A stretch of DNA of 17,955 nt, taken from the IMG/VR virus record IMGVR_UViG_2529292723_000018; one strand, 5' to 3'. Positions 1 through 14,245 of this stretch are shown piece by piece. The translations under genes were made by a program, and so were the position numbers. The stretch's first letter is position 1. Every line of letters starts with the position of its first letter. The notes under the pieces are model-generated. The model had not been told where the DNA came from. It searched no databases and worked only from the letters and a program-made list of their open reading frames with translations. This DNA comes from a virus (Duplodnaviria; Heunggongvirae; Uroviricota; Caudoviricetes).

Positions 1-288
1 TTACCGCCGCAGCCGTTCCGGCTTCTTCCACTGGTAAGTATTTTTCGCGCTCTCCCTCCGTTGTTGAGAACGGCGACGGTATGCCAGCAACTCAAGGACT
101 CTTGTTCGTATGTTGCGCATATCCACGCCGTTAAGCTCAATACCGTCACGGAGCATCACCTCAGCCACCACACGCGCGTAATTTTCAGCGGTGACTGTAT
201 CCGGCTGCGCGGCCTGTTCGTCAGCCAACTGGCTGATTCCACCAGCACAGCGGATTAATCGCAGTATTTCAGATTCGGTCATTATCAT
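1..288 (-). CDS. hypothetical protein, 3'-truncated by window edge; 4-nt ATGA overlap with upstream terminase-like gene (translational coupling)
   Basis: ATG at 288 (rc of cat 286-288); open to window edge; start overlaps stop of 285..770 gene; basic R/K-rich C-terminal part; no recognised motif. Confidence 0.4.
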   Translation of the reverse strand: MIMTESEILRLIRCAGGISQLADEQAAQPDTVTAENYARVVAEVMLRDGIELNGVDMRNIRTRVLELLAYRRRSQQRRESAKNTYQWKKPERLRR

Positions 289-770
289 GCCTGTTTTGCG
301 ACCTCATTCACTACGTCATTTTTTACCATCCGGCTGATAATCTGATTACGCAAATCGTCAATAATTGACTGCACTCTGTTTACTGCCATCGGTTTAAGCC
401 CGGCATCACGTGCCAGAATATTGGGGAGTTTTGCCAGTTCCTCGCTTACGATTTCCCCCCATATAGCCATCTCTTTTCGCACATCATCGGCGGGTATGAG
501 TTGCGCCGTTTCCTGTTCGAACCTGAGGCGCTCACGTTCGGACTGATACCAGGCCTTACGGTCATGTGGCTCCATTTCTTCCAGTGATGCCGGAACGGGA
601 AGATCAAGAAAACAGGTCAGAATGTCAGTCACCCGATAGAGTTTTAGCTTGTCATGCCCTCCGGCTGGCTGGATGTTTTTCAGCCTTGCCGCCGCAGTCT
701 GACGACATATTCCCGCTATCGCCGCCAGTTGATTAATGTTCAGCATCAGATTTTTCAGTTCTCGATCCAT
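285..770 (-). CDS. lambda Nu1-like terminase small subunit / packaging-specificity protein (winged-HTH N-terminus)
   Basis: ORF-track start at 857 is a TTG; ATG at 770 preceded by GGAG gives MDRELKNLMLNINQLAAIAGICRQTAAARLKNIQPAGG..., which resembles the Nu1 N-terminus as I recall it (KKQLADIFGASIRTIQNWQEQGMPV..GGGKGNEVLY); lies directly downstream of a cos-like site, as Nu1 does in lambda. Confidence 0.55.
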   Translation of the reverse strand: MDRELKNLMLNINQLAAIAGICRQTAAARLKNIQPAGGHDKLKLYRVTDILTCFLDLPVPASLEEMEPHDRKAWYQSERERLRFEQETAQLIPADDVRKEMAIWGEIVSEELAKLPNILARDAGLKPMAVNRVQSIIDDLRNQIISRMVKNDVVNEVAKQA

Positions 771-904
771 ACCCGCTCCAGAATGTTTTAAACATGCATC
801 TTGCGAACAACTTTCAGAAGAGGTCAAAAAATGCGCTATATGTTGAGCATAAAACAAGCAAAATTAACATGCTAAAAATAAAAATACTTAAAATTCAATA
901 CAAT

Positions 905-997
905 GGAAAGATGATGATGACGAATGAAAATGCAAAAACTAGCCTTTTTCCGCGCCGCTCCCGCCCCGTGGCAGGTCACTACACCGGGAGGACCCGC
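905..997 (-). other. lambda-like cos site (cos1): cosN-like GC-rich core plus CATCATCAT cosB-like flank
   Basis: Minus strand reads CACGGGGCGGGAGCGGCGCGGAAAAAGGCTAGTTTTTGCATTTTCATTCGTCATCATCATC, which resembles the lambda left end (ACGGGGCGGCGACCTCGCGGGTTTTCGC...TTCGTCATAA) as recalled; sits between capsid 3' end and the Nu1-like gene. Confidence 0.55.
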
Positions 998-1020
998 AAA
1001 AAAAGGCGGCTATCGCCGCC
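998..1020 (-). terminator. rho-independent terminator downstream of capsid gene
   Basis: GGCGGC-tatc-GCCGCC hairpin (1005-1020) preceded on the + strand by a 7-A run, i.e. hairpin then T-run on the minus strand. Confidence 0.55.
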
Positions 1021-1027
1021 CTTGTTG

Positions 1028-2647
1028 TCATGCTCCACTCGATTTCAGTAATCCGCGATAGTCGAGGGCCGCGACACCTGCATCTATGCGCACCTTCCAG
1101 GCGACGCCATCAACAGTAAATCCCTCCTGCTCCTCAAGATATGGCGTATCAATACCATCAAGATAAGCGACCTCTATCGTGTCCATCCCCTTCGCCGCTG
1201 CCACATACCACTCCTTGTTATTGGCTTTATCAAGACGCGGCTCGACGATAACCTCTGCCATATCTTTCACCACGTTAATGATGCCGGGGTTCTGATTGAT
1301 AGTGCCTCCACCATCAATCGGAAAGAGTGATGACGATGACAGAATGGCGCGATGTGCGGCAGACTCCAGCGCAGCAGGGACCAGAACAAAAGCGGGGGTA
1401 ATATTCAGGGAGTCGCCGTTGCCATCCTCCTGTAATCGCATCAGCTTACGGGCTTCGTTAAGCCCCTCCATGTCCATATCCTTCGCAATAAGATTTTTAT
1501 GATCGGCATGGAATAACGCTTTACCATCCGTAAATTTGCCGTTGCTGGTTAACAGAAGATAAACCAGATTACCTACTGTTCTGGCGGCCGCACGCCCCAT
1601 CGCCATGGGGATTGTAGTTAACTGGGTCAGGTCATCGTTGATAATGGCCTGACGGGTAACAGAAAAAATATTACCGTATGTGGCCAGCGCAATAGGTACA
1701 CCTTTATCGCTGGTGGTGATGTATTTATATTCCGCACCTTCCGGTACTTTATCCAGCTTTGAAAAACCATTCAGACCAACGCGCTTTGCTTCATGAAAGT
1801 TTGAAAGCGATCCGGTACACGTCCATTTCTGGAACGTTTCGCCGCTGTCCTGCCAGCCTTTCAGCACTGATTTTTCAGCACCACCAGCCAGAATATGAGA
1901 AAAATCGCTGCTGCTGTGTGTGAAAGCTGCATTAACGACCTGCGAGCGATTTAAAAAATTGCCAACACTGATACCACGATCAGTTAGTGATGCCTGGGCC
2001 ATTTCAAAAAGGCTCATCATCGCGTAAGGATTTCCCCGCTCTGGGCGTTCATACCCGAGACGAGAATAAAGCCCCTGACGAATTGCATCGCCTGTTATGT
2101 TCCCGTTACCGGCATAAATATGAGTCGGGATATTTTTATTGGATGGCGTGGACTCGCGCCCCAGCTCGTTCAACAACTTTTCACGGGCCATCTCCGGTGT
2201 ACATGATGCATCCTCCAGGCACGCCATTTTGATCCCGTCGTAACGACTGCCGAACAGGCTAAACACTTCACTTATTCCGTTGATGCGCTTCTGTTCATTA
2301 CCAGCAATATTTGCCGCTCCCTGTGGCGGTGTAATCATTCCTTTAATGGTTTCCGGCATATGTAAAAAATCTCCTGTGCGTTTCGATTCAATTCGCGCCA
2401 TTACTCTGACGGATGGCAACAATTCATCAGCAAAACCGTGCTTAAGGCATTCTTTCCCATCCATCCAGGTTTCATCCTCCAGCATGGCGGTAATTTCCTG
2501 TGCTGATTTGCCCGTTTTTCTGGCATAAGCAGGGATTAACACGGTTTCCACCTTATCCAGCAAATCAGCATAATCACGCATATCGCCAGCATTTCCGCCA
2601 GAGATCCCCCACGGTTTATGGATCATCATGCAATACATTGAAATCAT
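1028..2647 (-). CDS. HK97-fold major capsid protein, C-terminal portion of a ClpP-like protease-capsid fusion; 5' part removed by insertion of element E2 (likely pseudogene fragment)
   Basis: About 80% protein identity by eye to residues ~104-638 of the intact fusion at 4671..6587; homology starts exactly at MMIHKPWGISGG; sequence upstream of 2629 is unrelated. Confidence 0.75.
   Translation of the reverse strand: MISMYCMMIHKPWGISGGNAGDMRDYADLLDKVETVLIPAYARKTGKSAQEITAMLEDETWMDGKECLKHGFADELLPSVRVMARIESKRTGDFLHMPETIKGMITPPQGAANIAGNEQKRINGISEVFSLFGSRYDGIKMACLEDASCTPEMAREKLLNELGRESTPSNKNIPTHIYAGNGNITGDAIRQGLYSRLGYERPERGNPYAMMSLFEMAQASLTDRGISVGNFLNRSQVVNAAFTHSSSDFSHILAGGAEKSVLKGWQDSGETFQKWTCTGSLSNFHEAKRVGLNGFSKLDKVPEGAEYKYITTSDKGVPIALATYGNIFSVTRQAIINDDLTQLTTIPMAMGRAAARTVGNLVYLLLTSNGKFTDGKALFHADHKNLIAKDMDMEGLNEARKLMRLQEDGNGDSLNITPAFVLVPAALESAAHRAILSSSSLFPIDGGGTINQNPGIINVVKDMAEVIVEPRLDKANNKEWYVAAAKGMDTIEVAYLDGIDTPYLEEQEGFTVDGVAWKVRIDAGVAALDYRGLLKSSGA
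2618..2629. repeat. left copy of 12-bp direct repeat ATGGATCATCAT (candidate att core, left junction of E2)
   Basis: Identical 12-mer at 12935..12946; both copies lie at the break points of the split protease-capsid gene and are in frame with it. Confidence 0.6.
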
Positions 2648-2696
2648 CCTACTGATAAATAAGATTAAAAATCACAATACAGATACGTTTGAGCTT

Positions 2697-2720
2697 CATT
2701 GCAATACGCATTGCAATACA
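2697..2720. repeat. tandem CATTGCAATAC(G/A) repeats near left end of E2 (candidate integrase arm-type or regulatory sites)
   Basis: Two tandem 12-mers; a near-identical tandem pair at 12781..12806 just upstream of the int start codon. Confidence 0.45.
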
Positions 2721-3069
2721 CGGTTGCTGGGTGATTTCAAAAGATGAATGCTGCGAAGGATGGAAATTTGGGAACTAGGTGGTGAATAGCACAACAAAAA
2801 ATCAGAATTCTACTAGCTTAAAATGATGCAAAAAGCATTCGTGGCATCGCAAGCGCTGTACAATTCGTTCTATAATGAAGAAAATTTCTAACAGACTTTA
2901 TCATTCAAAGGTGGAGGAGATGACAGCAATGCAACATGCATCACGCTCATACTTGAATTGTAAAGCTATCGTTAGAATCACAGCCTTTTTGTTCCGCTGA
3001 TCTAACGATAAAACTAGTGGTAAAAGGTATATTTTTTAATTTTTCAGACGCTGGCGCGGGGTAATTAAA

Positions 3070-3372
3070 ATGAAATTTGTAAATATACGGTCATCCGAGT
3101 TGCCTGAAATAGATACCTTTGTAAAAGAATGTATCAACCAAGGACAATGGACTCTTTTCAAGGCCGAGAAGGGTGCAGTTAATGATAATAAAGTTGCTTT
3201 TTTTCTAAAGGCTGGCAAAGATTTCTTTGCATTAAATAACAGAGGAAGTGTTATCTCTGTATTTCAATCATTAGATTATAATCTTGAAATGAATGAGGTA
3301 ATTCATTTTTCAGATATTCCTAAACCTGAATCGTTGAGCAATATTGCTAGCTTAGGATTTGCTAGAGTTTAA
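3070..3372 (+). CDS. hypothetical protein (100 aa), first gene of AT-rich cargo operon
   Basis: ATG at 3070; 18-bp gap to next gene on same strand; visibly AT-rich codon usage unlike the core genes; no recognised motif. Confidence 0.55.
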   Translation: MKFVNIRSSELPEIDTFVKECINQGQWTLFKAEKGAVNDNKVAFFLKAGKDFFALNNRGSVISVFQSLDYNLEMNEVIHFSDIPKPESLSNIASLGFARV

Positions 3373-3390
3373 TATATAAGGATATGTACG

Positions 3391-4281
3391 ATGGGATTAA
3401 TATCTGGAAATACACATTGGGTATTATTTTTACCTTGTGAGCACCAACCAGAAGATCGCCATGTTCAAGATTTAGTTCATGGCGTCTTTTGCTTAGAATC
3501 CTCAGGTATACAGCCATCTAATATTAGCATATATATTGATGGCCAAAATAGAGCCAACTTTAATAAGTTAATTTCGATTGCAACCCAACATAATTATACT
3601 ATCAAGCCTACATCTGAATTTTTCACCGACTGCGATACAAATAGTTATGAAAATCTAGTTATGTTTGTGACCGGACACGGAAGTATGAATGGTTTGGACT
3701 CTGCGCCGATCATAACCCCATACCGTTTATTGGACAGGTTAAAAAACACTCCTGTTCTCAAGCAAGCAATCGTTTATCTTGGTCAATGTTTCGCTGGTGT
3801 TTTCAACTACTTACCTGCTGGGCAGCGTAAGAGAGGTGAAGATGCCGACCCCGATGTCATTCTTATCGGGGCTACGAGTCTTCATGAAAGTTTGAGTAAT
3901 CCAACAACGGAAAATATTAATGGTATAGATTTTCCTTGGGTTGCAAATCAATTTTTATATCATGTATTTAAGTGGATATCATCCCCGAATGATATCGATG
4001 GGGATGGAAAACATACAGTAATTGACTCTTATAAGTATGCTGGAATCTCATCAAACATGACCAATCGTAGAATGAAGATAGGTTCTTTTGTAGCTTCGGT
4101 AGACTTGCATGAGCAATGGAATACTGCAAAAAAAGATCATGAAGCTAACTTGGCTGATCCACAAAAACTACTCCGTTATAGAGCATTAGATCAGCAATAC
4201 TATGAAAAACTGAACATTAACTATATTCATCAAGAGTGCTGGATATTAAATTCTGTACCTGCACAATCTGTTGAATTCTAA
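3391..4281 (+). CDS. predicted caspase-like (clan CD-type) cysteine peptidase, candidate His96/Cys133 dyad; candidate anti-phage effector
   Basis: TAAGGA Shine-Dalgarno 7 nt upstream; hydrophobic strand + His-Gly (NLVMFVTGHGS) and hydrophobic strand + Gln-Cys (AIVYLGQCFAGVF) 37 residues apart, the arrangement seen in caspase/legumain-type peptidases; AT-rich. Confidence 0.5.
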   Translation: MGLISGNTHWVLFLPCEHQPEDRHVQDLVHGVFCLESSGIQPSNISIYIDGQNRANFNKLISIATQHNYTIKPTSEFFTDCDTNSYENLVMFVTGHGSMNGLDSAPIITPYRLLDRLKNTPVLKQAIVYLGQCFAGVFNYLPAGQRKRGEDADPDVILIGATSLHESLSNPTTENINGIDFPWVANQFLYHVFKWISSPNDIDGDGKHTVIDSYKYAGISSNMTNRRMKIGSFVASVDLHEQWNTAKKDHEANLADPQKLLRYRALDQQYYEKLNINYIHQECWILNSVPAQSVEF

Positions 4282-4285
4282 TCCT

Positions 4286-4453
4286 TTACTTTTTTGAATA
4301 GATTGCTGCAAGTGCCGTTTTGAGGTCGTAATTTCGGCACTTGCAACTGCAACCAGAAATAGGGCGAACGTTTGACAAACGTTTAGCTATAGTCTGCCGA
4401 TGAAATCCAGTCACTTCCGCCAACTCACTTAAATTTAGAACTATCTTTTTCAT
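4286..4453 (-). pseudogene. remnant of Nu1-like terminase small subunit (55 codons, HTH portion only)
   Basis: Hand translation MKKIVLNLSELAEVTGFHRQTIAKRLSNVRPISG... parallels NINQLAAIAGICRQTAAARLKNIQPAGG of the 285..770 protein, then diverges; ends 4 bp from the stop of the convergent cargo gene; not in ORF track (under 60 aa). Confidence 0.45.
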
Positions 4454-4547
4454 CATAATTACCCTTCAGATGTCGAACAAATAACATACAATCCATCATC
4501 TTTTCCACTTTTATAAAGTTTTACCTAATAAAATTCAGTTAGTTAGC

Positions 4548-4632
4548 GAATGATGATGATGTCTATAAAATTCAAAAACTAGCCGTTTCCCGCGATGCCG
4601 CCGCCCCGTGGCAGGCATCCCCGCCGGGAGTA
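4548..4632 (-). other. lambda-like cos site (cos2) of element E2
   Basis: Minus strand reads CCACGGGGCGGCGGCATCGCGGGAAACGGCTAGTTTTTGAATTTT...CATCATCATCATTCG; same position (capsid 3' end to terminase remnant) as cos1. Confidence 0.55.
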
Positions 4633-4634
4633 CC

Positions 4635-4662
4635 TTTTAAAAAAGGGCAGCATCTGCCGCCC
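4635..4662 (-). terminator. putative rho-independent terminator after capsid gene
   Basis: Short GC hairpin (GGCAG/CTGCC) followed by a T-run on the minus strand. Confidence 0.4.
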
Positions 4663-4670
4663 TCCTGTCG

Positions 4671-6587
4671 TCATGCCGCCCCGCTCGACTTCACCATGCC
4701 CCGATAATCCAGCGCCGCCACGCCAGCATCGATACGCACCTTCCATGCAATACCGTCCACAGTGAAGCCCTCCTGCTGTTCCAGATACGGCACGTCCATT
4801 CCATCCAGATATGCCACCTCGATAGTGTCGGTGCCTTGCGCTGCAGTGACGTACCACTCCTTGTTGTTGGCCTTGTCCAGTCGCGGCTCAACCACTACCT
4901 GCGCCATATCCTTCACGACGTTGATAATGCCTGGGTTCTGGTTCAGCATACCGTTCTGGTCTACCGGGAACAGCGAAGATGATGACAGCACAGCTCGATT
5001 GGCTGCGCCTTCCAGCGCGGCAGGTACAAGGATATAGGCTGGGATAACATTAATAGGATCGCCGTTCGCATCCTCCTGCAGACGCATAGCCTTACGGGCC
5101 TCATTGAGTCCGTCTGTATCCATCCCTTTAGCGATGAGGTTTTTATGGTCGGCGTGGAACAACGCTTTACCATCTGTGAATTTGCTGTTGGCGGTCAGTT
5201 GCAGGTAGACCAGATTGCCAACCGTTCGTGCGGCGGCACGCCCCATTGCCTGTGGAATGGTCGTGAGCTGGCTCAGGTCATCGTTGATAATGGCCTGGCG
5301 TGTAACAGAGAAGATGTTTCCATAGGTGGCCAGCGCGATCGGCACACCGCTGTCGCTGGTAGTGACATATTTGTATTCAGCACCTTCCGGGACTTTATCC
5401 AGTTCTGAAAAACCATTCAGACCGACACGTTTAGCCTCATGGAAATTCGACAGAGAACCGGTCTTTGTCCACTGCTGGAAAGTTTCCCCGCTGTTCTGCC
5501 AGCCAGTCAGCACCGACTTTTCAGCACCACCAGCCAGGATATGAGAGAAATCACTGGTGCTGTGCGTAAATGCCAGGTTCACGATCTGCGAGCGATTCCC
5601 GAAACCACTGACGCTGATACCACGATCCACCAGCGAAGCCTGCGCCATTTCAAACAGACTCATCATGGCGTAAGGGTTTCCCCTTTCGGCGCGTTCGTGA
5701 CCCAGACGGGCAAAAAGCCCCTGGCGGATAGCATCGCCGGTAATGTTGCCGTTACCTGCGTAAATGTGCGCGTTACTGGTTTTATCCGATGGGGTCGAGG
5801 TCTTACCCAGTGCCGTCAGCAGCATGTCTTTTGCTTTTTCAGGCGTGCAATCCACATCCTCCAGACACTGCATCTTGAGAGAATCATGCTTGCCGCCGAA
5901 CATGGCAAACAGATCCTTAATCTCGTTGATGCGGTTCTGTTCCGGTACAGCGCTACTGGTGGAACCTTTCGGGCTGGTGATCATCCCTTTAATTTCTTTT
6001 GGCATATGCTCAAAATCCTCAATTCGTTTTGACTCAATACAGGCCATTGCCCTGACGGCGGGTAACAATTCGTCAGCAAAACCCTGCGCTACACATTCGC
6101 GGCCATCCATCCATGTTTCATCCTCCAGCATTTCCGCCAGTGATTCGGCTGATTTACCCGTTTTGCGTGCATATGCCGGGATCAAGACACTTTCGACTTT
6201 ATCCAGAAGTTCGGCGTAGTCGCGCATGTCGTTGGCGTTCCCACCAGAGATTCCCCACGGTTTGTGAATCATCATGAGTGCGTTTTCGGGCATAACGATA
6301 CGGTCGCCAGCCATTGCAATAACTGACGCCATAGACGCGGCGAGACCGTCGATCTGCACTGTAATTTTTGCCGGGTGTTTATTCAGAAGGTTATAGATAG
6401 CGATGCCGTCAAAAACATCGCCACCGGGTGAATGAATGTGCAGGCTGATATGGGAGATATCGCCTAGGGCTTTCAGGTCTTCGGAGAACTGCTGCGCCGT
6501 AATACCCCAGCCGCCGATCTCTTCGTAGATGCTGATATTGGCGCTGGTGCCATCGCTGGCCGCTTTGATGGTGTACCAGCCTTTCAT
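4671..6587 (-). CDS. ClpP-like prohead protease fused to HK97-fold major capsid protein (638 aa), intact
   Basis: ATG at 6587 with AAGGGGA Shine-Dalgarno; N-terminal ClpP-like motifs (GLAASMAS, MMIHKPWG); long C-terminal capsid-like region; ATGA overlap with upstream small gene. Confidence 0.85.
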   Translation of the reverse strand: MKGWYTIKAASDGTSANISIYEEIGGWGITAQQFSEDLKALGDISHISLHIHSPGGDVFDGIAIYNLLNKHPAKITVQIDGLAASMASVIAMAGDRIVMPENALMMIHKPWGISGGNANDMRDYAELLDKVESVLIPAYARKTGKSAESLAEMLEDETWMDGRECVAQGFADELLPAVRAMACIESKRIEDFEHMPKEIKGMITSPKGSTSSAVPEQNRINEIKDLFAMFGGKHDSLKMQCLEDVDCTPEKAKDMLLTALGKTSTPSDKTSNAHIYAGNGNITGDAIRQGLFARLGHERAERGNPYAMMSLFEMAQASLVDRGISVSGFGNRSQIVNLAFTHSTSDFSHILAGGAEKSVLTGWQNSGETFQQWTKTGSLSNFHEAKRVGLNGFSELDKVPEGAEYKYVTTSDSGVPIALATYGNIFSVTRQAIINDDLSQLTTIPQAMGRAAARTVGNLVYLQLTANSKFTDGKALFHADHKNLIAKGMDTDGLNEARKAMRLQEDANGDPINVIPAYILVPAALEGAANRAVLSSSSLFPVDQNGMLNQNPGIINVVKDMAQVVVEPRLDKANNKEWYVTAAQGTDTIEVAYLDGMDVPYLEQQEGFTVDGIAWKVRIDAGVAALDYRGMVKSSGAA

Positions 6588-6796
6588 TTTTCCCCTTCCG
6601 TTACAGCGAAGCCATTTTCATCAAGCCATGCGTTGACTGCGTGCCGGACTACCTGTGCCACTCCGGGCAATGGCTGGACAGGAAGATTTTTCAGATGATC
6701 GTTGCGGTATTGCTTAAGGCGTACAACGGTTTGCGCGTCCAGATGTACGGAGCCGCCTTTAGTCTCGCCAGTGTTTAAATCGTTAATGTCACTCAT
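6584..6796 (-). CDS. small conserved protein (70 aa) upstream of and translationally coupled to protease-capsid gene
   Basis: ATG at 6796 with AGAGGA Shine-Dalgarno (ORF-track start at 6844 is TTG); homolog at 13258..13464 (MSDINDLNTGE... vs MSCINDLNTGD...). Confidence 0.55.
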   Translation of the reverse strand: MSDINDLNTGETKGGSVHLDAQTVVRLKQYRNDHLKNLPVQPLPGVAQVVRHAVNAWLDENGFAVTEGEK

Positions 6797-6941
6797 GATG
6801 TCCTCTACTGTATAAGTAAACAGGTTATGATGATTGATCACCAAAAGTGGTAAGTGAACAATTTTTTATCTGAAAAATAGATTTATGATGAAAAAAAATT
6901 TTTGTATGGTCTTAGATTGGAATAAACAGAAAGGTTAAAAA

Positions 6942-7655
6942 ATGGATCTCACTCGTAATGACGAACTCCTTTTGAATGATGCAGCTAGACGCTCATTTCG
7001 GGATATGGCAGACCAGGATTATCTCTCAGCTCGTCTGTGTTATAAGCACAAATTGAATTTTCAATTTTTATGGCTTTCGCAACAAGCCGTAGAGAAATAT
7101 ATTAAAGCGATTTTACTTTATAATAGAGTTCCAGTATTAAAATTAAATCACAATTTAAACAAAGGGCTGGCAAAGATTAAAGAAATCCCATATCTTGAAT
7201 TAGACCTAGATGTAAAAAGTGAGCGATTCATAGATTATCTCAATGAGCAGGGCCCAAATAGATACTTCCAAAACACTATGTATACCGAAGGCTTTGAAAT
7301 TATAACCTTGGATAGAACCATCTGGGAATTAAGAAGATACTGCAAGCCACTAAACTACTCAATTACTAACCCAAAAGGTGAAGTGATAGAAATGTTAGAA
7401 CATGAATTGAGTAGCATAAAAAATTCGAAGTCGAGGCCTTATCATACGTTCAAACTATTTGGAGGTTACTTAGAAAAAAGATTAAAAGATAATAAATTCA
7501 ATCAGGGCGACATACTTACATGGAAAAATTTATTTTTTGGAAGAAATAAAAAAAATGCAATTAGAATTGGAAGATCAATGCATGTAACTCATCCAACTCA
7601 TTATATGTACCCAAATGCAACGGAAATGCTCAGTCGTTTCTTTAAAATAAAATAA
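6942..7655 (+). CDS. HEPN-like protein (tentative), candidate abortive-infection effector; AT-rich cargo
   Basis: N-terminal helix pair with QQAVEKYIKAILL resembling the HEPN QAxEKxLKA signature; R-x5-H (RIGRSMH) near C-terminus; opposite strand to flanking core genes. Confidence 0.5.
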   Translation: MDLTRNDELLLNDAARRSFRDMADQDYLSARLCYKHKLNFQFLWLSQQAVEKYIKAILLYNRVPVLKLNHNLNKGLAKIKEIPYLELDLDVKSERFIDYLNEQGPNRYFQNTMYTEGFEIITLDRTIWELRRYCKPLNYSITNPKGEVIEMLEHELSSIKNSKSRPYHTFKLFGGYLEKRLKDNKFNQGDILTWKNLFFGRNKKNAIRIGRSMHVTHPTHYMYPNATEMLSRFFKIK

Positions 7656-7744
7656 TTACATTCCAATTTTATTTACCGCTGTTAAATAAGTAAGGTATAT
7701 CTTTATTTATCGACATTGATAATCATGAAAGAGTATATCTTTTT

Positions 7745-7960
7745 TGCCGCACCTAGCGCATTTCTCACCGCACTTTCATCCCGCGCACTTAGGTGCGCAA
7801 TCCAACATGCACCGTACAGCCATTAAAACCAGTAATGGGGCGGGTTTGCAGGTGATTAATGCCAAACCGCGCACTTTCTTCGTATATACATGGAAAAAGT
7901 GCGGCAAGTGTATGTTTTATGAGCATTTCGCGCATCACGCGCATTTCTTGCCGCACTTTT
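7745..7960. repeat. iteron-like repeat cluster (TTGCCGCAC / CGCACTTT / GCGCATTTC, direct and inverted); candidate origin for the E2 replication protein
   Basis: TTGCCGCAC at 7745 and 7949, its complement at 7900; CGCACTTT four times; GCGCATTTC at least twice; lies immediately 3' of the replication gene, as the TGTTCACC iterons do in E1. Confidence 0.45.
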
Positions 7961-7964
7961 CAGG

Positions 7965-9374
7965 TTAAATTATCGTGATATCTCCTGAATCATCGATAAA
8001 GATAATATTCTCCCTAACGAGTTTATCAAGCCAGCGTTTAAAACCTTTGCGGCCGTTCTCTCCAAACAGAGTGGTAATATCATCACGTATAACAGAGACA
8101 TTACACGGTTCACCTTTGGCTTTTCGGCTCCGGATTGACTGCCAGAGTGCAGCGTGGTTCCCAGTCAGGTGCTTGATATCAGCAAGTTCCGGATCAGGTT
8201 CTCGTGCCTCTCGTGGCAGGTCCTGCACCACCAGCGACGAAATAAGCTCACCATCACGATCTGTGAACAATTCGATCGGACGCAGATCGAATGCGGCCTG
8301 TTTCGGCTCCTCCGCATCTTTCATCTTCGTACAGGTCAGGATTATCGCCCCACCATCCCCCTCGCGCCGGACATTGAACTCTGCATCGAGCGCAGCCCTG
8401 AAAGCACTGGAACCACGTGCGCCTTTGGTATCGTCTTTTCCTGAATGATGCACCACCAGCAACGTGGCGCCAGTCTCACGCTTGATGACGTCGCAGCCTT
8501 CAATAAACGCCCCCATGTCACGAGCATCGTTTTCATCGTTACCACCAAAGCACCGCGCTAGAGTATCTATGACAATCAGGCGAACCGGCTGCCCCGTTTT
8601 GGACTTAACGTCACGCGCAGCTTTGATCATCTCCTGCATTTCCTCACGGCGAACCGGGAAAACCGGACGGTTTACCAGATACAGATTATTTAGTTTCACA
8701 CCATGTTTTTTCTCCCACGCCTTTATTCGCCGCGGAACGCCAATACCACCTTCACCTACTACGTACATCACAGCGCCGGCTGATACCGACTTCCCCGCCC
8801 ACTTCATCCCGGCTGCAACGTGACAAGCCCAGGACACCGCCAGAAAACTTTTATACGAACCGCTCGGGCCGTAGATACTGCTCAGGCTGTTAGCGGGAAG
8901 ATAACTTTTTAACGTGTAATCCTGCTCCTGATCGTACCCATCAGAGCCCACGCTTAAAGGAAGGCTGTGCCGCAGTGACTCCTCTCGCACAGAGACTTCA
9001 ACCTGTTCACGCAGACGAGAAAGATATTCCCTCCAGTCCTCAGGCTCATGGTCGGGGATTCCTTTATACAATTTGGCATCCTGCACGCCAGCCAGCGCCA
9101 GCTTTTCAGCAATGTTATTAATCTGGATAGGCTTTATATTCCCTGCCAGGTAAATCCGCACGGCACGACGGCCATCATCCACAATGCGCAGGTTATCCAG
9201 CTCTGCCAGTTGTTTTGGCCCAAGGTAAACAGGAGGAGTGGTATCTTCGGCAATCTGTTTACCAAGCCCCTCTTCCCAACCCTTCGCATGGGCGTATGCT
9301 TCTGACCCGGCAAAAATAACTGCCTCCGTGAATTTTTCTTTTGGCAGGTGTTTCAGATTCGGTGCGTTTTTCAT
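7965..9374 (-). CDS. replication protein: N-terminal domain shared with the P4-family primase at 14246..16063 plus AAA_25/RecA-like ATPase (pri-rep type)
   Basis: ATG at 9374 with AAGGGG Shine-Dalgarno; deviant Walker A (YGPSGSYKSF); LLVVHHSGKD...RGSSA motif typical of RepA-like ATPases; first ~110 aa align with the E1 primase (KxAPNLKH...). Confidence 0.75.
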   Translation of the reverse strand: MKNAPNLKHLPKEKFTEAVIFAGSEAYAHAKGWEEGLGKQIAEDTTPPVYLGPKQLAELDNLRIVDDGRRAVRIYLAGNIKPIQINNIAEKLALAGVQDAKLYKGIPDHEPEDWREYLSRLREQVEVSVREESLRHSLPLSVGSDGYDQEQDYTLKSYLPANSLSSIYGPSGSYKSFLAVSWACHVAAGMKWAGKSVSAGAVMYVVGEGGIGVPRRIKAWEKKHGVKLNNLYLVNRPVFPVRREEMQEMIKAARDVKSKTGQPVRLIVIDTLARCFGGNDENDARDMGAFIEGCDVIKRETGATLLVVHHSGKDDTKGARGSSAFRAALDAEFNVRREGDGGAIILTCTKMKDAEEPKQAAFDLRPIELFTDRDGELISSLVVQDLPREAREPDPELADIKHLTGNHAALWQSIRSRKAKGEPCNVSVIRDDITTLFGENGRKGFKRWLDKLVRENIIFIDDSGDITII

Positions 9375-9694
9375 TTCAGCCCCTTATCCCATCCGTCAGA
9401 TCCAACACTCAGCGGCAGAGAAGAGCGCAGAGCAGCGATTTTTTTACGCACGTTTTCTTTTCCGGTCTCCTGCCACTCCCTGCTTTCCTCAGGGAGATAA
9501 ATAAATTCTTTTCGGAACCGGTACTCAGAAAAAATACACTCATGTGAATACCCATCCCGGACATACGTAATACGGCTATCCGTTATGCATGTGACAGTAA
9601 TTTTTTCTCCGCGAGAATCTTTCCAGCGACTGTTAAGCTCGATTTTTGGTTGAGCGATGCCCTCAAGCTGAACCTGATTGAATTTTTTAATCAT
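9371..9694 (-). CDS. small protein (107 aa), homolog of 16060..16359; C-terminal tail resembles the primase linker
   Basis: ATGA overlap with primase start; YVRDGYSHECIF vs YFIRDGYSFHSS in the E1 homolog; C-terminal LRSSLPLSVGSDGWD matches primase LRHSLPLSVGSDGYD. Confidence 0.55.
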   Translation of the reverse strand: MIKKFNQVQLEGIAQPKIELNSRWKDSRGEKITVTCITDSRITYVRDGYSHECIFSEYRFRKEFIYLPEESREWQETGKENVRKKIAALRSSLPLSVGSDGWDKGLK

Positions 9695-9698
9695 GAAT

Positions 9699-9878
9699 TT
9701 ATTCCTTGTCGGTAGCCGTTAAACCGTATGCTTCAGCAGCCTGACGAACTGCCTGGATAAAACCTTCCGGTGTGGCCACGATTTCGTCCGGACGAAGGCG
9801 GCGCTCTGTAACCTGACCGTTTTTAACCGTCACCAGTACGCGGATCTCGTAATCAGCAGGTAAGGCGGAGTTATCCAT
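9699..9878 (-). CDS. small hypothetical protein (59 aa from internal ATG)
   Basis: ORF-track frame 9699..10004; upstream part overlaps the better-supported gene 9871..10158, so start placed at ATG 9878. Confidence 0.3.
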
Positions 9879-10158
9879 GGCGCCCCTCCATTGGCACAGC
9901 TTCATTGCTGTAAGGATCGCTACCCAAGATGCTCCATAGGGTGCGATGTTCAGGATCCATAAACGACACTGAGAGCGGGCTTTCTGTTCGGATTTTGGCG
10001 GCAAAGGTCAAGTCCCAGCCGCAGAACTTTGCACGGGCAGTATCTTCAGTGTCTGCAATGGTGCGCAGAACTATCGGGAGACAAGAGTGACCTCGCGGCG
10101 TGCCAAGGAATAGCCATGTAAATTTTGGGCGAGTTTGGGTATGCTGTTGATCAGCCAT
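9871..10158 (-). CDS. small protein (95 aa), first gene of leftward operon; homolog of 16679..16883
   Basis: ATG at 10158 with GAGGT Shine-Dalgarno; shared KFTW motif and downstream pattern with the E1 homolog. Confidence 0.5.
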
Positions 10159-10190
10159 AACTGTTACCTCAACTAACGGTTTGTGGTTAG

Positions 10191-10239
10191 ACGTCCCGTG
10201 AGTGGTTCCAAGCACTTCCGGGACGTTGCTTTTTTCACG
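10191..10239. promoter_or_regulatory. conserved stem-loop (ACGTCCCG / CGGGACGT, 20-nt loop) followed by T-run, at the 5' end of the leftward operon
   Basis: Same structure at 16919..16965 in E1 with a compensatory pair (T-A replaced by C-G). Confidence 0.45.
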
Positions 10240-10248
10240 TCAAGCGTG

Positions 10249-10298
10249 ATAACGTACGTACGTAATAGCAACATCCTATGAGGTTACGTACGTACATG
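10249..10298. promoter_or_regulatory. two palindromic operator-like sites (ACGTACGTACGT core) between divergent RHH gene and leftward operon
   Basis: TAACGTACGTACGTAATA and TTACGTACGTACATG about 34 bp apart; second overlaps the start region of the RHH gene. Confidence 0.5.
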
Positions 10299-10487
10299 TC
10301 AACAATAAAACGAGATAAAACACCCAAAGGAGAGGGCTTGTCTCCGACATTCCAAATCCGAATAAGTCCTGAATTGCGCCAGCAGATGAATGAAGCTGCT
10401 GAGCGTGAGGGAGTAAGTCTTGGTAATTGGCTTAAAGGTCTGGCTAGAAATGAACTTATTAAGCAAGGAATTGAACCTAAAGGTTAG
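10278..10487 (+). CDS. ribbon-helix-helix (Arc/CopG-like) transcriptional regulator, candidate E2 repressor
   Basis: RISPELRQQMNEAAEREGVSLGNWLKGLARNEL fits a beta-strand plus two helices; true start may be ATG 10296 (MSTIKRDK); adjacent to palindromic operators. Confidence 0.6.
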   Translation: MRLRTYMSTIKRDKTPKGEGLSPTFQIRISPELRQQMNEAAEREGVSLGNWLKGLARNELIKQGIEPKG

Positions 10488-10540
10488 TTTTCACAAGCAC
10501 TCTTTGATTTTTTCAGTAAAAATTAAATTAAGGAAATTCT

Positions 10541-11251
10541 ATGGATGATTTATATACACCATCTGAATATTTTATGTTCGTAGAGAAATTTGATCATTAC
10601 TTCCCACGAAAAAGCCCTTTTAACTCATTATTATTCGAGTTCAATTATAGATTAGAAGATATAGTTGTTTTTCATCGCTTTGTTATCAACACCTATTCAA
10701 AAAATAAAAAAGCAATTGATGTACAATATAATAAATTTAATTTTCTTGATGATAAACAAAAAAATTCCCTTTCTGATGACGAGTATGAAGCGTATCAACT
10801 CAGGTTTGCAAGGCATATGGAATACATTAACCATCAAACTGATTTGAATGAAAAAGCGTCTTACATTGCTAACGATAGTGTCGTTATAAACTTATGGGCC
10901 ATGAATGAACAATATATGACTAGAGGATTGGCCAACCTAATATCTCAAAAAGAAAATAAAAATTTAAATGAAGTTAAAACGCCTTACAAATGGGATACAA
11001 TCAAAAGTAAATTCCTGTCATATGGAATCAACTTTGAGACATTGCCATCTTATGATGACATTAATGAATGTAGAGTACTGAATAATAAAATAAAACATCT
11101 GAACATAGTAGATTCTGGTTTAGAAGTTTTCCCTCCCTTCAAAGGTAAGCTTAACGAATCACTTACTGGCATGGCCTTTCCTCTTCAAAAATATATCATA
11201 GGCTCTCATCACTTTATAGGAATGCTATTAGAAGAGTGCTCATTAAAATAA
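10541..11251 (+). CDS. hypothetical protein (236 aa), AT-rich cargo in the RHH-alpA slot
   Basis: AAGGA Shine-Dalgarno; AT-rich, Asn/Lys/Ile-rich; the same slot in E1 holds only a 62-aa ORF; no recognised motif. Confidence 0.55.
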   Translation: MDDLYTPSEYFMFVEKFDHYFPRKSPFNSLLFEFNYRLEDIVVFHRFVINTYSKNKKAIDVQYNKFNFLDDKQKNSLSDDEYEAYQLRFARHMEYINHQTDLNEKASYIANDSVVINLWAMNEQYMTRGLANLISQKENKNLNEVKTPYKWDTIKSKFLSYGINFETLPSYDDINECRVLNNKIKHLNIVDSGLEVFPPFKGKLNESLTGMAFPLQKYIIGSHHFIGMLLEECSLK

Positions 11252-11255
11252 ACGC

Positions 11256-11292
11256 ATGGCAACGTATAATTTATCGCTTAATACGTTGCCAT
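11256..11292. terminator. 12-bp perfect inverted repeat (ATGGCAACGTAT / ATACGTTGCCAT, 13-nt loop) between convergent genes
   Basis: Lies between the stop of 10541..11251 (+) and the stop of alpA (-); no strong T-run, so terminator function is uncertain. Confidence 0.4.
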
Positions 11293-11297
11293 ATCTC

Positions 11298-11543
11298 TCA
11301 TTTATTTTTATCGAACCAATCTCCTTTAATCCAAGCTTGCATCTCTGAGAGCCGGTAAGCAACTGCTGACGGCCCAATTTTGATTCGCTTAGGAAATTTT
11401 CCTTCCTGTTCCATGCGCCAGCGCGTTGAGTTAGACAACGTAGTCATAGCCCGGCATTCAGGTTCGCGAATCATTCTGTCAAGGTCAGGCATGTACTGGA
11501 GATCTTCTTTTTTCACAACGGATAACATAGCCATATCAGGCAC
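11298..11543 (-). CDS. alpA: AlpA-family excisionase / transcriptional regulator
   Basis: MIREPECRAMTTLSNSTRWRMEQEGKFPKRIKIGPSAVAYRLSEMQAWI matches the AlpA pattern as recalled; start may be the internal ATG at 11492; 8-bp overlap with int. Confidence 0.8.
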   Translation of the reverse strand: MPDMAMLSVVKKEDLQYMPDLDRMIREPECRAMTTLSNSTRWRMEQEGKFPKRIKIGPSAVAYRLSEMQAWIKGDWFDKNK

Positions 11544-12771
11544 TCCTTTTCTTAATTACTTTTACTGTATTTTCTTCACCCACCAGCCCATCAAGGTAGT
11601 CAACCCATCGGTCCAGTGCTTCTTGCTTTTGAGGGATATACTTGCTGCGGTTATAGACTCCGGCCACGCCCTTTATGGTATGCCCCAGCAGCTGCTCTAC
11701 GACCATAAAATCAACGCCCATATCGTTAAGGCTTGTCGAGAACGTTCGTCTCAAATCATGTAATGACCAGCGTTTTTCATGTTTCAGAGAGATAAAGTTT
11801 GTGCATCCCATCGTACTGACGGTTGAATCAGATTTCAGTTCGCCAAATATGTAGCCTCTCCTTTTAGTCTCTTCGTGCAGGTTTACGATCCACTGGCGCA
11901 TTTTTTGAGGAACGGGGCGAATAATTTCTTCGCCGTTTTTACTGTGCTCTTTAGGTACTGTCCAAATCCACTTATCGAAATCCCACTCATCCCATGTAGA
12001 TAAACGCGCCTCACTCAGCCTGCAGCCAAACACGAGACACAAAATCGCCATCCTTTTTTTGTAATTCATTACACGGGTTTTGCCTTTACCATGAAAGTAC
12101 ACTCCCCACAGATCGGCGACGTAGCTTTCCTCAAGTAGCCGCTCTCTCTTGTTCTGATACTTACCGATATCACCAGGGCTCAAATCATCAAGCACATTGC
12201 ACCGCACATACTGGCGCACCCGGCAGTATTTGAAGATCTGCTTTAACTCAATCAGCATTGCAGCAGACTGAACCGGCGCGATTTTCTTTATGCGGTCGAA
12301 GCACTTGATCCAGTCTGACAGACCGCATTTCTCGACAGGAAACCCGCCGATGTAGGGAAAAATGTATCTCTCATAACGGCGATAGAGCCGTAAAGTCTCT
12401 TTGCGCTTTTCCCTGGCATAGTTATCAAACCAGTAATCGATAGCGTTCTTCACAGTTACTGGAGTGAACAGGTTCTCTTTGGTGAGTTTGTTCTCTATTC
12501 GTGGGTCGAGTCCCTGAGATAGCCATGCCCGGCACTCGTCCCTTTTCTCTCTGGCCTGTTTAAGGGTCATATCTGGATACTTGCCTAACGTCATCCAGAC
12601 GGGGGCGCTTTGTCGGCCGGAATGTCTGAAGAAATACACAAAGCTCACAGTGCCACTAACGCTCACTCTGACAGACAGTCCACGACCATCTGCCACCATC
12701 TTTTGACGCGGCTGGGGTTTACCATGTAAGGCCTTTAACGCCTTGTCGCTTAACTTGTTCTCGCCCGCCAT
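11536..12771 (-). CDS. int: P4-type tyrosine integrase
   Basis: N-terminal arm-binding pattern (GRGLSVRVSVSGTVSFVYFF...LGKYPDMTLKQAREKR); C-terminal catalytic-region motifs LHDLRRTF and LLGHT...VYNRSKY; adjacent to right junction of E2. Confidence 0.9.
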   Translation of the reverse strand: MAGENKLSDKALKALHGKPQPRQKMVADGRGLSVRVSVSGTVSFVYFFRHSGRQSAPVWMTLGKYPDMTLKQAREKRDECRAWLSQGLDPRIENKLTKENLFTPVTVKNAIDYWFDNYAREKRKETLRLYRRYERYIFPYIGGFPVEKCGLSDWIKCFDRIKKIAPVQSAAMLIELKQIFKYCRVRQYVRCNVLDDLSPGDIGKYQNKRERLLEESYVADLWGVYFHGKGKTRVMNYKKRMAILCLVFGCRLSEARLSTWDEWDFDKWIWTVPKEHSKNGEEIIRPVPQKMRQWIVNLHEETKRRGYIFGELKSDSTVSTMGCTNFISLKHEKRWSLHDLRRTFSTSLNDMGVDFMVVEQLLGHTIKGVAGVYNRSKYIPQKQEALDRWVDYLDGLVGEENTVKVIKKRSA

Positions 12772-13258
12772 AAAACCTCATTCTGCAATACACATTGCAA
12801 TACACACTTAACTGCAACGCCGAAAAACAGTAGAAAAGCAATGCAAACAACACCTCTTCTTTCTTCATAATTAACAATAAGTTAATGAATGAATACGGTT
12901 CTTCATGCGTACCCATGAGGTAGTGTGAAGGATAATGGATCATCATCATGGCGTTCTCCGGCATCACTACACGATCGCCAGCCATTGCGACCACCGAAGC
13001 CATTGAAGCCGCAACACCATCGATATAAACCGTAATGTCTGCCGGATGATTCCGTAGCAGGTTATAGATGGCGATGCCTTCAAACACATCACCACCTGGT
13101 GAATGGATCCTCAGATTGATATGTGAAACATCGCCAAGGGCTTTCAGGTCTTCCGCGAACTGCTTTGCAGTAACACCGAAGCCGCCAATCTCCTCATAGA
13201 TAGATATATCCGCCGCTCCACGAACATCCGCCGCCTTAATGGTGTACCAGCGATTCAT
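12719..13258 (-). CDS. N-terminal fragment of ClpP-like prohead protease (first 108 codons authentic; remainder is read-through into E2 DNA); disrupted gene
   Basis: MNRWYTIKAA...GVAASMASVVAMAGDRVVMPENAMMMIH is about 75% identical by eye to the N-terminus of the intact fusion, then diverges at the 12-bp repeat. Confidence 0.7.
   Translation of the reverse strand: MNRWYTIKAADVRGAADISIYEEIGGFGVTAKQFAEDLKALGDVSHINLRIHSPGGDVFEGIAIYNLLRNHPADITVYIDGVAASMASVVAMAGDRVVMPENAMMMIHYPSHYLMGTHEEPYSFINLLLIMKKEEVLFALLFYCFSALQLSVYCNVYCRMRFYGGREQVKRQGVKGLTW
12781..12806. repeat. tandem TGCAATACA repeats 10 bp upstream of int start
   Basis: CTGCAATACACATTGCAATACACAC; matches the tandem pair at 2697..2720. Confidence 0.45.
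12935..12946. repeat. right copy of 12-bp direct repeat ATGGATCATCAT (candidate att core, right junction of E2)
   Basis: Identical to 2618..2629; protease homology begins exactly here on the minus strand. Confidence 0.6.
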
Positions 13259-13776: not shown

Positions 13777-13848
13777 ATGAAAATGCAAAAACCAGCCTTT
13801 TTCCGCGACGCTCCCGCCCCGTGGCAGGTCACTACACCGGGAGGACCC
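13777..13848 (-). other. cos-like segment (cos3), about 72 bp near-identical to cos1 but lacking the CATCATCAT cosB-like flank
   Basis: Two mismatches to cos1 across the cosN-like core; flanking sequence differs immediately beyond GCATTTTCAT. Confidence 0.5.
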
Positions 13849-13850
13849 AT

Positions 13851-13878
13851 AAAAAAGCCGGATTGCTCCGGCTTCTGT
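13851..13878 (-). terminator. rho-independent terminator
   Basis: GCCGGA-ttgc-TCCGGC hairpin with a 6-A run on its + strand 5' side. Confidence 0.5.
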
Positions 13879-14002: not shown

Positions 14003-14231
14003 CCTTCACCTGTTCACCTTTTGATATTTTCTCTTTTAATTCATAATGTTAAGGGGTGAACAGTTTCACAAAAACTATTCACCAACTGTTCACCACTGTT
14101 CACCCTTGAAGCTCAATAAACAATCAAAAAGGTGAACAGTGAATAGTTTGGTGAACAGTTCATAAATAACTGTTCACCCTATAATATACTGATATAAAAG
14201 ATATTTATGACAGGGTGAACAGTGGTGAACA
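14003..14231. repeat. P4-type iteron cluster: at least 10 copies of TGTTCACC / GGTGAACA in both orientations (candidate ori/crr)
   Basis: Exact octamers at 14011, 14055, 14087, 14097, 14131, 14150, 14171, 14214, 14224 plus variants; TGTTCACC is the octamer bound by P4 alpha protein at ori and crr. Confidence 0.75.
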
Positions 14232-14245
14232 GTTATTCCATAAGT

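Follow-up and report, generated by a model that had tools for sequence, protein, structure and literature searches.

Lambda-type cos sites and a chimeric small terminase homologue in two nested satellites of the PICI type

A stretch of 17,955 nucleotides filed as a tailed-phage record (IMG/VR record IMGVR_UViG_2529292723_000018, Caudoviricetes; the whole stretch is called the window below) was analyzed with regard to its cos sites and its small terminase (TerS) genes. The window is best read as two satellites of the phage-inducible chromosomal island (PICI) type, an inner island (E2) nested in an outer one (E1), that carry cos sites of the type found in their lambdoid helpers and are packaged by the helper's terminase. 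In this reading, E1 encodes a chimeric TerS and has an accessory third cos site, and E2 either depends on the helper's TerS or is decaying; the probability of the whole is put at about three in four. The homology of the sites, the family and domain content of the proteins, the absence of a large terminase (TerL) gene and the joint variation of cosB with the DNA-binding domain of TerS can be read from the sequences themselves. Gram-negative PICIs carry virulence and defence genes between enterobacteria and, to our knowledge, the only packaging takeover that has been worked out among them is that by Rpp of EcCICFT073, which relies on a cosB unlike that of the helper. The E1 family appears to solve the takeover in another way, with a real small terminase homologue that has a recognition module copied from the helper and another half that is private to the satellites.

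The first 5 kb of the window are 100% identical to Escherichia coli O114:H49 strain 90-9280 and to eight other genomes. In the chromosome, E1 occupies the slot between tRNA-Ile (tRNA-Ile2) and nfeF (annotation of locus L001), and its annotated genes include a tyrosine integrase, a helix-turn-helix regulator, an Icd-like gene, a DUF4222 gene and a D5-type primase. The late genes of E1 encode a fusion of a ClpP-like prohead protease with the major capsid protein (two pseudogene pieces), a DUF1441 protein and a small last product. E2 extends from about 2630 to 12946 and contains an integrase gene (11536-12771), an AlpA-like regulator, a RepA-type helicase (7965-9374), a HEPN gene, an intact protease/capsid fusion of its own and two other-strand genes without annotated function. 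The junctions of E2 with E1 are marked by two copies of a 12-bp attachment (att) core, ATGATGATCCAT, at the codons for MMIH and KPWG of the E1 capsid gene, and joining the two capsid gene pieces in silico with E2 removed gives an intact 637-aa open reading frame (ORF). By these junctions, E2 lies inside the protease/capsid gene of E1 (table 1), a nesting that had not been recognized when the window was first described as holding two elements. Both islands have the components of Gram-negative PICIs, namely an integrase, a regulator, a primase or replication gene with an origin of replication (ori), and a capsid or terS homologue, and no portal, large terminase, tail or lysis genes were identified in either of them by the annotation of L001 and Pfam searches. 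Membership in the capsid-forming PICIs (cf-PICIs) was rejected because only the protease/capsid fusion and terS are present and a portal, a large terminase and an HNH gene are missing. The composite is the one published by Tommasini, Mageeney and Williams in 2023 (PMC10111431), and that paper reports 24 cases of a helper-embedded PICI at site C:CLP_protease:110 within the E. coli PICI at tRNA-Ile2, with a composite size of 20.6 kb.

The window contains three copies of the motif CACGGGGCGG-N6-CGCGG, each on the minus strand (950-970, 4590-4610 and 13803-13823), against a chance expectation of 0.31 occurrences; three matches were reached in none of 200 shuffles. Two of these occurrences belong to cos1 and cos2, which the preliminary description had proposed as lambda-type sites; their type is borne out, and a third site not listed there, cos3 (13808-13819), is located in E1 between the iteron-rich ori and the capsid operon. 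For comparison with lambda, the lambda record was closed by joining its right end to its left end, and the resulting sequence (GGGTCCTTTCCGGTGATCCGACAGGTTACG, GGGCGGCGACCT and CGCGGGTTTTCGC in succession) aligns to GGGTCCTCCCGGTGTAGTGACCTGCCACG, GGGCGGGAGCGG and CGCGGAAAAAGGC of cos1. All three sites align to lambda. In cos1, lambda and satellite share the cosQ heptamer, both flanks (ACG and CGCGG) and the six bases with which the cohesive end begins; the cosQ spacing is also kept (29 bp versus 30 bp in lambda). Two-fold symmetry over 16 bp is seen at 8-10 positions in the satellite sites and at 10 in lambda, the latter in agreement with the literature (PMC9026076). The cosQ heptamer is an exact GGGTCCT in cos1 and cos3, and the alignment between cos1 and cos2 starts where the capsid gene ends and covers GGCTAGTTTTTG and CATCATCATC. 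Each of these two sites directly follows a capsid gene and lies ∼140-185 bp before a small terminase gene, and neither contains the lambda R sequence (CGTTTCC). The cos3 site has no CATCATCATC element, shares its 12-mer with phages PhiR40_1 and phi458 and is kept in other E1-type satellites (L019 and L021).

The same cos region is found ∼185 bp upstream of a DUF1441-type terS gene in phages PhiR40_1, phi458 and VT1-Sakai and in prophage L022, in each of which the genes for a gpA-type large terminase, a portal and a ClpP/capsid fusion come after terS; the satellites thus have the cos-terS arrangement of the phages. This near-identity to the cos sites of lambdoid phages with gpA-type large terminases agrees with the alignment to lambda cosQ-cosN in assigning cos1 and cos2 to the lambda type. 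A blastn search with cos2 identified the region in 33 phage records, just upstream of terS in every record where it was located relative to terS, and in about 2280 of 5426 complete E. coli genomes (∼40%). Phage LLS, which has a DUF1441 TerS, was deposited with the feature “5' extended single-strand cohesive site GGGCGGCGCGCT” at bases 1-12, and this annotated cohesive end is exactly the 12-mer that is homologous to the satellite 12-mers. The record of Hafnia phage yong2 begins directly after the 12-mer. Taken together, these two records document the cut position for the phage family, not for the islands; the record of mEp460_4F5 starts near cos with no clean end and was not used for termini. 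Counted from the predicted end, CATCATCATC begins at bp 46-48 in cos1, cos2, LLS, yong2, L022 and VT1-Sakai. At bp 46-57 in cos1 and cos2 it overlaps the interval equivalent to R3, which lies at bp 50-65 in lambda and at bp 48-60 in N15 (PMC9026076); the element is a candidate TerS-binding element.

The 161-aa product of the gene that follows cos1 had been called Nu1-like, a label for which a profile search was suggested as the check. The search recovers a relationship to small terminases through DUF1441 (PF07278, E = 2.4e-36, profile positions 1-145 of 147) and phrog_141 (“terminase small subunit”, E = 9.6e-57), and DUF1441 is the sole significant Pfam match, Phage_Nu1 giving none at E up to 0.1. 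The protein is 66-71% identical to the small terminases of the mEp460-related phages PhiR40_1, phi458 and Ayreon, and the phage homologues of DUF1441 precede GpA_ATPase/GpA_nuclease genes. An hhalign comparison of the DUF1441 alignment with lambda Nu1 gave a weak match to residues 1-49 only (E = 1.2e-3, probability 20%). The AlphaFold model of the protein (predicted local distance difference test, pLDDT, 79) consists of a winged helix-turn-helix, a long central helix and a helical C-terminal part, and the MerR-like winged-helix N-terminal domain that characterizes gpNu1 is found in the AF2 models. Foldseek with the full-length model returned 6hn7_A, from the Rpp complex, only at E = 0.58, and sequence searches of the PDB with the 161-aa protein, the family profile and the “terminase small subunit” of an O157 PICI yielded no meaningful match. 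The likeness to Nu1 accordingly extends to the fold, the gene position and the partner enzyme but not to the Pfam family.

Sequence comparisons indicate that the E1 small terminase is a satellite-specific chimera and not a plain copy of a phage TerS. In an alignment of 24 homologues, a group of 161-162-aa proteins shares the E1-type C-terminal half, ending in MVKNDVVNEVAKQA and lacking the acidic tails in which the phage versions end (e.g., DDEEELQQEE). Among 102 homologues of 150-200 aa, the identity to E1 across residues 98-161 is ≥85% in 13 and <60% in 89, with none in the range of 60-85%, and within the high-identity group the identity of the N-terminal 60 residues varies from 52% to 100%. 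The proteins with the satellite-type C-half are located in PICIs (primase, SSB, ClpP/capsid fusion, DUF1441 gene, 93-aa gene, chromosome), and a protein with the exact N-half of E1 and a phage-type C-half belongs to a lambdoid prophage, where lysis genes lie on one side of its gene and the gene for a gpA-type large terminase on the other. The satellite-type terS C-half and the 93-aa gene are found together in about 191 of the E. coli genomes. The C-half of E1 retains the family-invariant residues L112, P116, L119, R121, D122, Q134 and D138.

The N-terminal part of the protein varies together with cosB. The region from cosN to the terS start codon is 97% identical between E1 and prophage L022 (with an identical 12-mer), 98% between satellite L019 and phi458 and 93% between satellite L021 and VT1-Sakai, and TerS residues 1-56 are 100%, 100% and 98% identical in the same pairs. 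Identity among the C-halves of E1, L019 and L021, by comparison, is 97-98%, and their identity to the phage versions is 27-51%; the cosQ-cosN regions of the three satellites group together (90-95%). The pattern indicates that cosB and the DNA-binding domain travel as one cassette that is common to particular phages; cos3 remains unchanged when the cassette changes. This co-variation is good, though indirect, evidence that the DNA-binding domain reads cosB.

In E2, the terS homologue is reduced to a 56-aa ORF. It matches DUF1441 at positions 1-46 only (E = 8.8e-7) as well as phrog_141 (E = 1.8e-10), and its alignment to the full-length proteins continues to residue 53 of 56, after which a stop codon and AT-rich cargo follow; the stop codon is 4 nt from that of the convergent 296-aa cargo gene (3391-4281). 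The model of the ORF is a winged helix (pLDDT 84). The best Foldseek matches are 7lwr and 7lxs (probability 0.97), entries on viral DNA-packaging motors which we take to be small terminase DNA-binding domains, followed by MerR-like domains. Further matches are 1J9I, the DNA-binding domain of gpNu1, and 6hn7_B, the lambda TerS chain of the Rpp complex (template modeling score 0.60 each), and all E-values are weak (0.1-1.2), as is usual for domains as small as 56 residues. The GC content of the cargo region (2660-4285) is 36% compared with 51-53% in the terminase and capsid genes. Neither of the two cargo proteins has a match in Pfam, NCBIfam or PADLOC, and the sole match of the 100-aa protein is phrog_30138 (function unknown). 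These results agree with the earlier view of the E2 remnant, then counted as 55 codons, as a DNA-binding domain alone that ends at the cargo junction.

Megablast and blastn searches found no E. coli relatives of the E2 terS stub beyond the nine genomes with the same composite. Elements of the same architecture, with the same 56-aa ORF and the same two cargo genes, are present at chromosomal sites in Klebsiella quasipneumoniae (36 contigs). A comparison of the Klebsiella and E. coli copies (L010 7873-11838 versus window 6587-2619) shows ∼90% identity in the capsid gene and cosQ-cosN and ∼100% identity from just past cosN through the ORF and the cargo, and the jump in identity just after cosN points to a recombination breakpoint at cos. 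The Klebsiella copy has an exact cosQ (GGGTCCT) and the 12-mer of phage LLS, GGGCGGCGCGCT, but a stop codon in the capsid gene, whereas the E. coli copy has an intact capsid gene and the cosQ sequence AGGTACT. A rearranged island at the same tRNA-Ile locus in E. coli MS1679 (L025 8417-13422) contains an E2-like frameshifted capsid gene, the cos 12-mer TGGCGGCGGCAT and a DUF1441 gene whose reading frame breaks off at about residue 112 (...LETLPDIL), where another convergent cargo gene, different from that of E2, takes over. Next comes a Clp-protease fragment, and behind it lie a cos of the E1 type, terS and the 93-aa gene. The truncation of terS by cargo is thus recurrent, and this second, independent case makes it plausible that E2 traded its terminase for cargo, as had been suggested.

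Since neither E1 nor E2 encodes a large terminase, packaging by the terminase of a lambdoid helper, as the preliminary description had it, is the natural reading of the gene content. The helpers would be lambdoid phages of the mEp460/Gifsy/VT1-Sakai type with a gpA-type large terminase, a DUF1441 small terminase and a ClpP-protease/capsid fusion. Once induction and replication have taken place, winged-helix domains of the small terminase would bind the cosB containing CATCATCATC at the R3-equivalent position and bring the helper's large terminase to cosN; the large subunit would then introduce staggered nicks that leave a 12-nt 5' end, and packaging would proceed toward terS. Helper compatibility would be set by the cosB/DNA-binding cassette, and the C-half of the E1 protein would perform a satellite-specific task, most likely by altering the coupling to the helper's TerS or TerL. 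By analogy with the second cos of EcCICFT073, cos3, which combines cosQ and cosN with no cosB repeat, may be an accessory or termination-type site. E2 has lost to cargo all of terS that follows the part for the DNA-binding domain, and it would either rely on the helper's TerS to use cos2 or be decaying.

Several observations weigh against this interpretation. The cosQ of cos2 differs from the exact heptamer at two positions, and cosQ is required for termination in lambda. No consensus site for integration host factor is present in cos1 or cos2. In an alignment of three variants of the 56-aa ORF, the third is set apart from the E. coli ORF by a count of about 9 nonsynonymous changes and 1 synonymous change, which gives no sign of purifying selection on the stub, and the E2 relatives in Klebsiella and MS1679 carry capsid pseudogenes. 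Among the phages of the collection, none comes near E2 in cosB or in the DNA-binding domain, the best being 34-51% identical. In E1, cosB and the DNA-binding domain equal those of the helper, so that the protein cannot discriminate satellite from phage DNA at cosB, and the benefit to the satellite is one that we infer.

Table 1. Positions of the features discussed in the text, numbered from the first base of the window.
Feature	Position	Strand	Remarks
E1 last gene, 93-95 aa	1..288	-	phrog_1561 of unknown function; overlaps the terS stop codon
E1 small terminase homologue, 161 aa	285..770	-	winged helix, central helix, satellite-specific C-terminal half
cos1 (E1)	905..1000	-	cosQ GGGTCCT at 989-995; 12-mer GGGCGGGAGCGG at 955-966; CGCGG
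CATCATCATC element of cos1	910-919	-	bp 48-57 from the first base of the predicted end
GC hairpin and T-run adjoining cosQ of cos1	1001..1022	-	GGCGGC-GATA-GCCGCC and a run of seven T; direct reading
E1 protease/capsid gene, 3' part	1028..2629	-	starts at the att core at 2618-2629
att core 1, ATGATGATCCAT	2618-2629		12 bp; junction of E2 with the E1 capsid gene
E2 cargo, two AT-rich genes (100 aa, 296 aa)	3070..4281	+	replaces the rest of terS
E2 ORF, 56 aa	4286..4456	-	winged-helix DNA-binding domain of a DUF1441 small terminase, nothing after it
cos2 (E2)	4494..4640	-	cosQ AGGTACT at 4629-4635; 12-mer GGGCGGCGGCAT at 4595-4606; CGCGG; inverted GATGATG at bp 107
CATCATCATC element of cos2	4552-4561	-	bp 46-55
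Hairpin and T-run before cos2	4646-4658	-	similar to that at cos1
E2 ClpP-protease/major-capsid fusion, 638 aa	4671..6587	-	directly upstream of cos2
att core 2, ATGATGATCCAT	12935-12946		12 bp; other junction
E1 protease/capsid gene, 5' part	12935..13258	-	ends in an att core
cos3 (E1)	13780..13875	-	cosQ GGGTCCT at 13842-13848; 12-mer GGGCGGGAGCGT at 13808-13819; CGCGG
Hairpin and T-run before cos3	about 13855-13875	-	similar to that at cos1

A possible extension, offered tentatively, is that the E1 family carries a two-module device in which a C-terminal “effector” half found only in satellites is combined with a swappable cosB/DNA-binding cassette taken from the current lambdoid helper prophage. 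Recombination would join the two modules at cosN and within the conserved central helix, the 93-aa partner would possibly cooperate, and E2 would be the extreme case with the cassette only. Such a device would achieve a takeover like that by Rpp with no new cosB and would allow one satellite lineage to follow many helpers.

The main rival for E1 is that the 161-aa protein is an interference factor similar to Rpp and not a working small terminase, which seems somewhat unlikely although it has points in its favor. Mixed oligomers of this protein and the helper's TerS would be held together by the DNA-binding domain, which is identical, and the central helix, which is conserved, and the nonacidic C-half of the E1 protein would disable or redirect the coupling to the helper's large terminase, thereby lowering phage packaging and favoring the satellite. 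The gene is located between the TerS-proximal cos and the 93-aa last gene, the slot that holds the “terminase small subunit” gene in the O157 PICI and that would be equivalent to the position of Rpp in EcCICFT073; Rpp is likewise built of a TerS-like winged-helix domain with a helical part on its C-terminal side, and the C-half of E1 is satellite-specific and has lost the acidic tail. However, phmmer and hmmsearch found no sequence similarity between the E1 protein and the Rpp chains in the PDB, the cosB of the satellite equals that of the helper and confers no new DNA specificity, and the retention of the family-invariant residues in the C-half suggests that the fold, and possibly the binding of TerL, has been kept. 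Membership in the Rpp family itself was rejected, as there is no sequence homology to RppA, RppB or RppC. The Rpp-like reading and that of a terminase subunit are not mutually exclusive.

Among the closest known systems are the EcCICFT073-type islands of Fillol-Salom et al. (2018, PMC6092414; 2019, PMC6739421). Like E1 and E2, these are ∼10-kb islands with an integrase, a regulator, primase or replication genes, an ori and a capsid gene homologue, and like E1 they carry a pair of lambda-like cos sites in which cosQ and cosN are conserved, a gene for a TerS-like winged-helix protein and no large terminase. They are packaged by the terminase of a lambdoid helper, and the sequences suggest the same for E1 and E2. 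The two cos sites of EcCICFT073 have been tested functionally: only the one recognized via its cosB was needed for transfer, and deletion of the other raised transfer (PMC6092414, PMC6739421). In Rpp islands, cosB differs from that of the helper (PMC6739421), unlike in E1, where the two are equal, and the E1 protein, unlike Rpp, is a true DUF1441 small terminase homologue (66-84% identity to phage TerS). The capsid gene is a ClpP-protease/capsid fusion in E1 and E2 compared with homologues of gpE and gpD in EcCICFT073, and the presumed helpers of E1 and E2 are of the mEp460/Gifsy/VT1-Sakai type, as opposed to lambda, phi80 and 21.

For E2, it is improbable but conceivable that the 56-aa domain is a functional small protein that marks cos2 or pairs with the DNA-binding domain of the helper's TerS, as a minimal specificity factor of the Rpp kind. 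The model is that of a complete and confidently folded winged helix, a Shine–Dalgarno-like GAAGGG precedes the ATG, and the length of 56 aa is kept in the Klebsiella contigs; moreover, lambda TerS dimerizes via its DNA-binding domain, and Rpp acts by mimicking that domain. The ratio of about 9 nonsynonymous to 1 synonymous substitutions argues against a function, only two homologous protein clusters were found, and the truncation at about residue 112 in MS1679 suggests that cargo insertion is simply tolerated there. The idea that cos and terS are inert remnants of captured phage DNA in decaying, nonmobile islands would fit the degenerate cosQ of cos2, the truncated terS and the capsid pseudogenes of the E2 relatives, and a 56-aa ORF that shows no excess of synonymous change and is usually not called in RefSeq annotation, but it is the least probable of the alternatives, particularly outside E2, because cos1, cos3, terS and the 93-aa gene are intact and conserved in E1-type satellites, the repeated exchange of cassettes with different phages indicates ongoing selection for helper compatibility, the presence of E2 in two genera with near-identical cosB, ORF and cargo indicates recent spread, and the att sites of E2 are intact, so that excision would restore the E1 capsid ORF.

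The preferred reading, nested satellites packaged from helper-type cos sites, can also be set against lambda and the Gram-positive islands. The satellite sites resemble the lambda site in the cosQ located ∼29-30 bp upstream, the 12-nt segment beginning with GGGCGG and the CGCGG flank, in a candidate TerS element at the R3-equivalent position, in a winged-helix TerS encoded downstream and in the gpA-family large terminase of the related phages; they differ from it at 4-5 positions of the 12-mer and in a TerS that belongs to DUF1441 and not to Phage_Nu1. The pac-type Staphylococcus aureus pathogenicity islands (SaPIs), which are Gram-positive PICIs, likewise use a satellite homologue of the helper's small terminase together with the helper's large terminase, but the SaPI TerS serves a satellite-specific pac site and headful packaging, whereas E1 is of the cos type and shares its recognition module with the helper.

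A specialist would mostly expect cos sites and terminase genes in a PICI: terS is a core component of these islands (bioRxiv 10.1101/2022.09.14.508007), and cos-type Gram-negative PICIs with two lambda-like cos sites have been described (PMC6092414, PMC6739421, PMC9026076). The cassette pattern is the part that merits experiments. Three aspects appear to be undescribed so far: Gifsy/mEp460-type cos sites in these islands, a chimeric terminase that joins a helper-matched cosB/DNA-binding cassette to a private C-half, and terS genes that have repeatedly been cut down to a stub next to cargo. A full-text literature search for DUF1441 returned papers on other phages only; DUF1441 is not mentioned in the paper on the composite, the searched passages of which do not treat the cos sites, the DUF1441 terminase genes, a chimeric TerS or the inner truncation (PMC10111431). 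If correct, the interpretation provides a testable model for helper switching by satellites and a handle on the part of a lambda-type small terminase that talks to the large subunit. For annotation, the analysis shows “DUF1441” genes and the unannotated sequence that adjoins them to be small terminase genes and cos sites.

The 93-95-aa last gene is present in about 1000 of the 5426 E. coli genomes. In an O157:H7 PICI with lambda-type capsid and decoration genes, it follows a different “terminase small subunit” gene (L024 9002-9283), a context that makes it look like a PICI gene that is conserved whatever the type of terminase. The 95-aa protein gave no BLASTP match to TerL or TerS of phages or to Nu1. 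A 68/86-aa protein encoded upstream of the capsid gene is unrelated to the product of the 70-aa gene between terL and portal in the phage. The capsid gene of E2 itself reads ATGATGATTCAC at the codons of the att core and differs from ATGATGATCCAT at 2 of 12 positions. The protease/capsid fusions of the satellites are 637-638 aa long compared with 675 aa in the prophage (L022 10256-12283), and the shorter form might redirect capsid size.

Iteron-like repeats (GGTGAACA/TGTTCACC) are found in at least nine copies and in both orientations at 14020-14240, downstream of the E1 primase gene, and presumably represent an iteron-type origin of replication of E1. In the phage cos regions that were examined, no hairpin with a T-run precedes cosQ; the hairpins at the satellite cos sites (table 1) may separate the transcription of the capsid gene from that of terS. 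A terminator scan returned the cos2 hairpin and a plus-strand reading of the cos1 hairpin, and the terminator and promoter scans of the window were overall not above chance. Within the E2 cargo, the 296-aa protein contains FVTGHG and, further on, YLGQCFAG, which reads like a putative His/Cys dyad of the caspase type. Two other-strand, AT-rich genes of E2, at 6942-7655 and 10541-11251 (plus strand, GC content 33% and 30%), encode a HEPN-domain protein and a 236-aa protein without a PADLOC match and are likely accessory or defence cargo; the HEPN gene occupies the same position in the MS1679 island.

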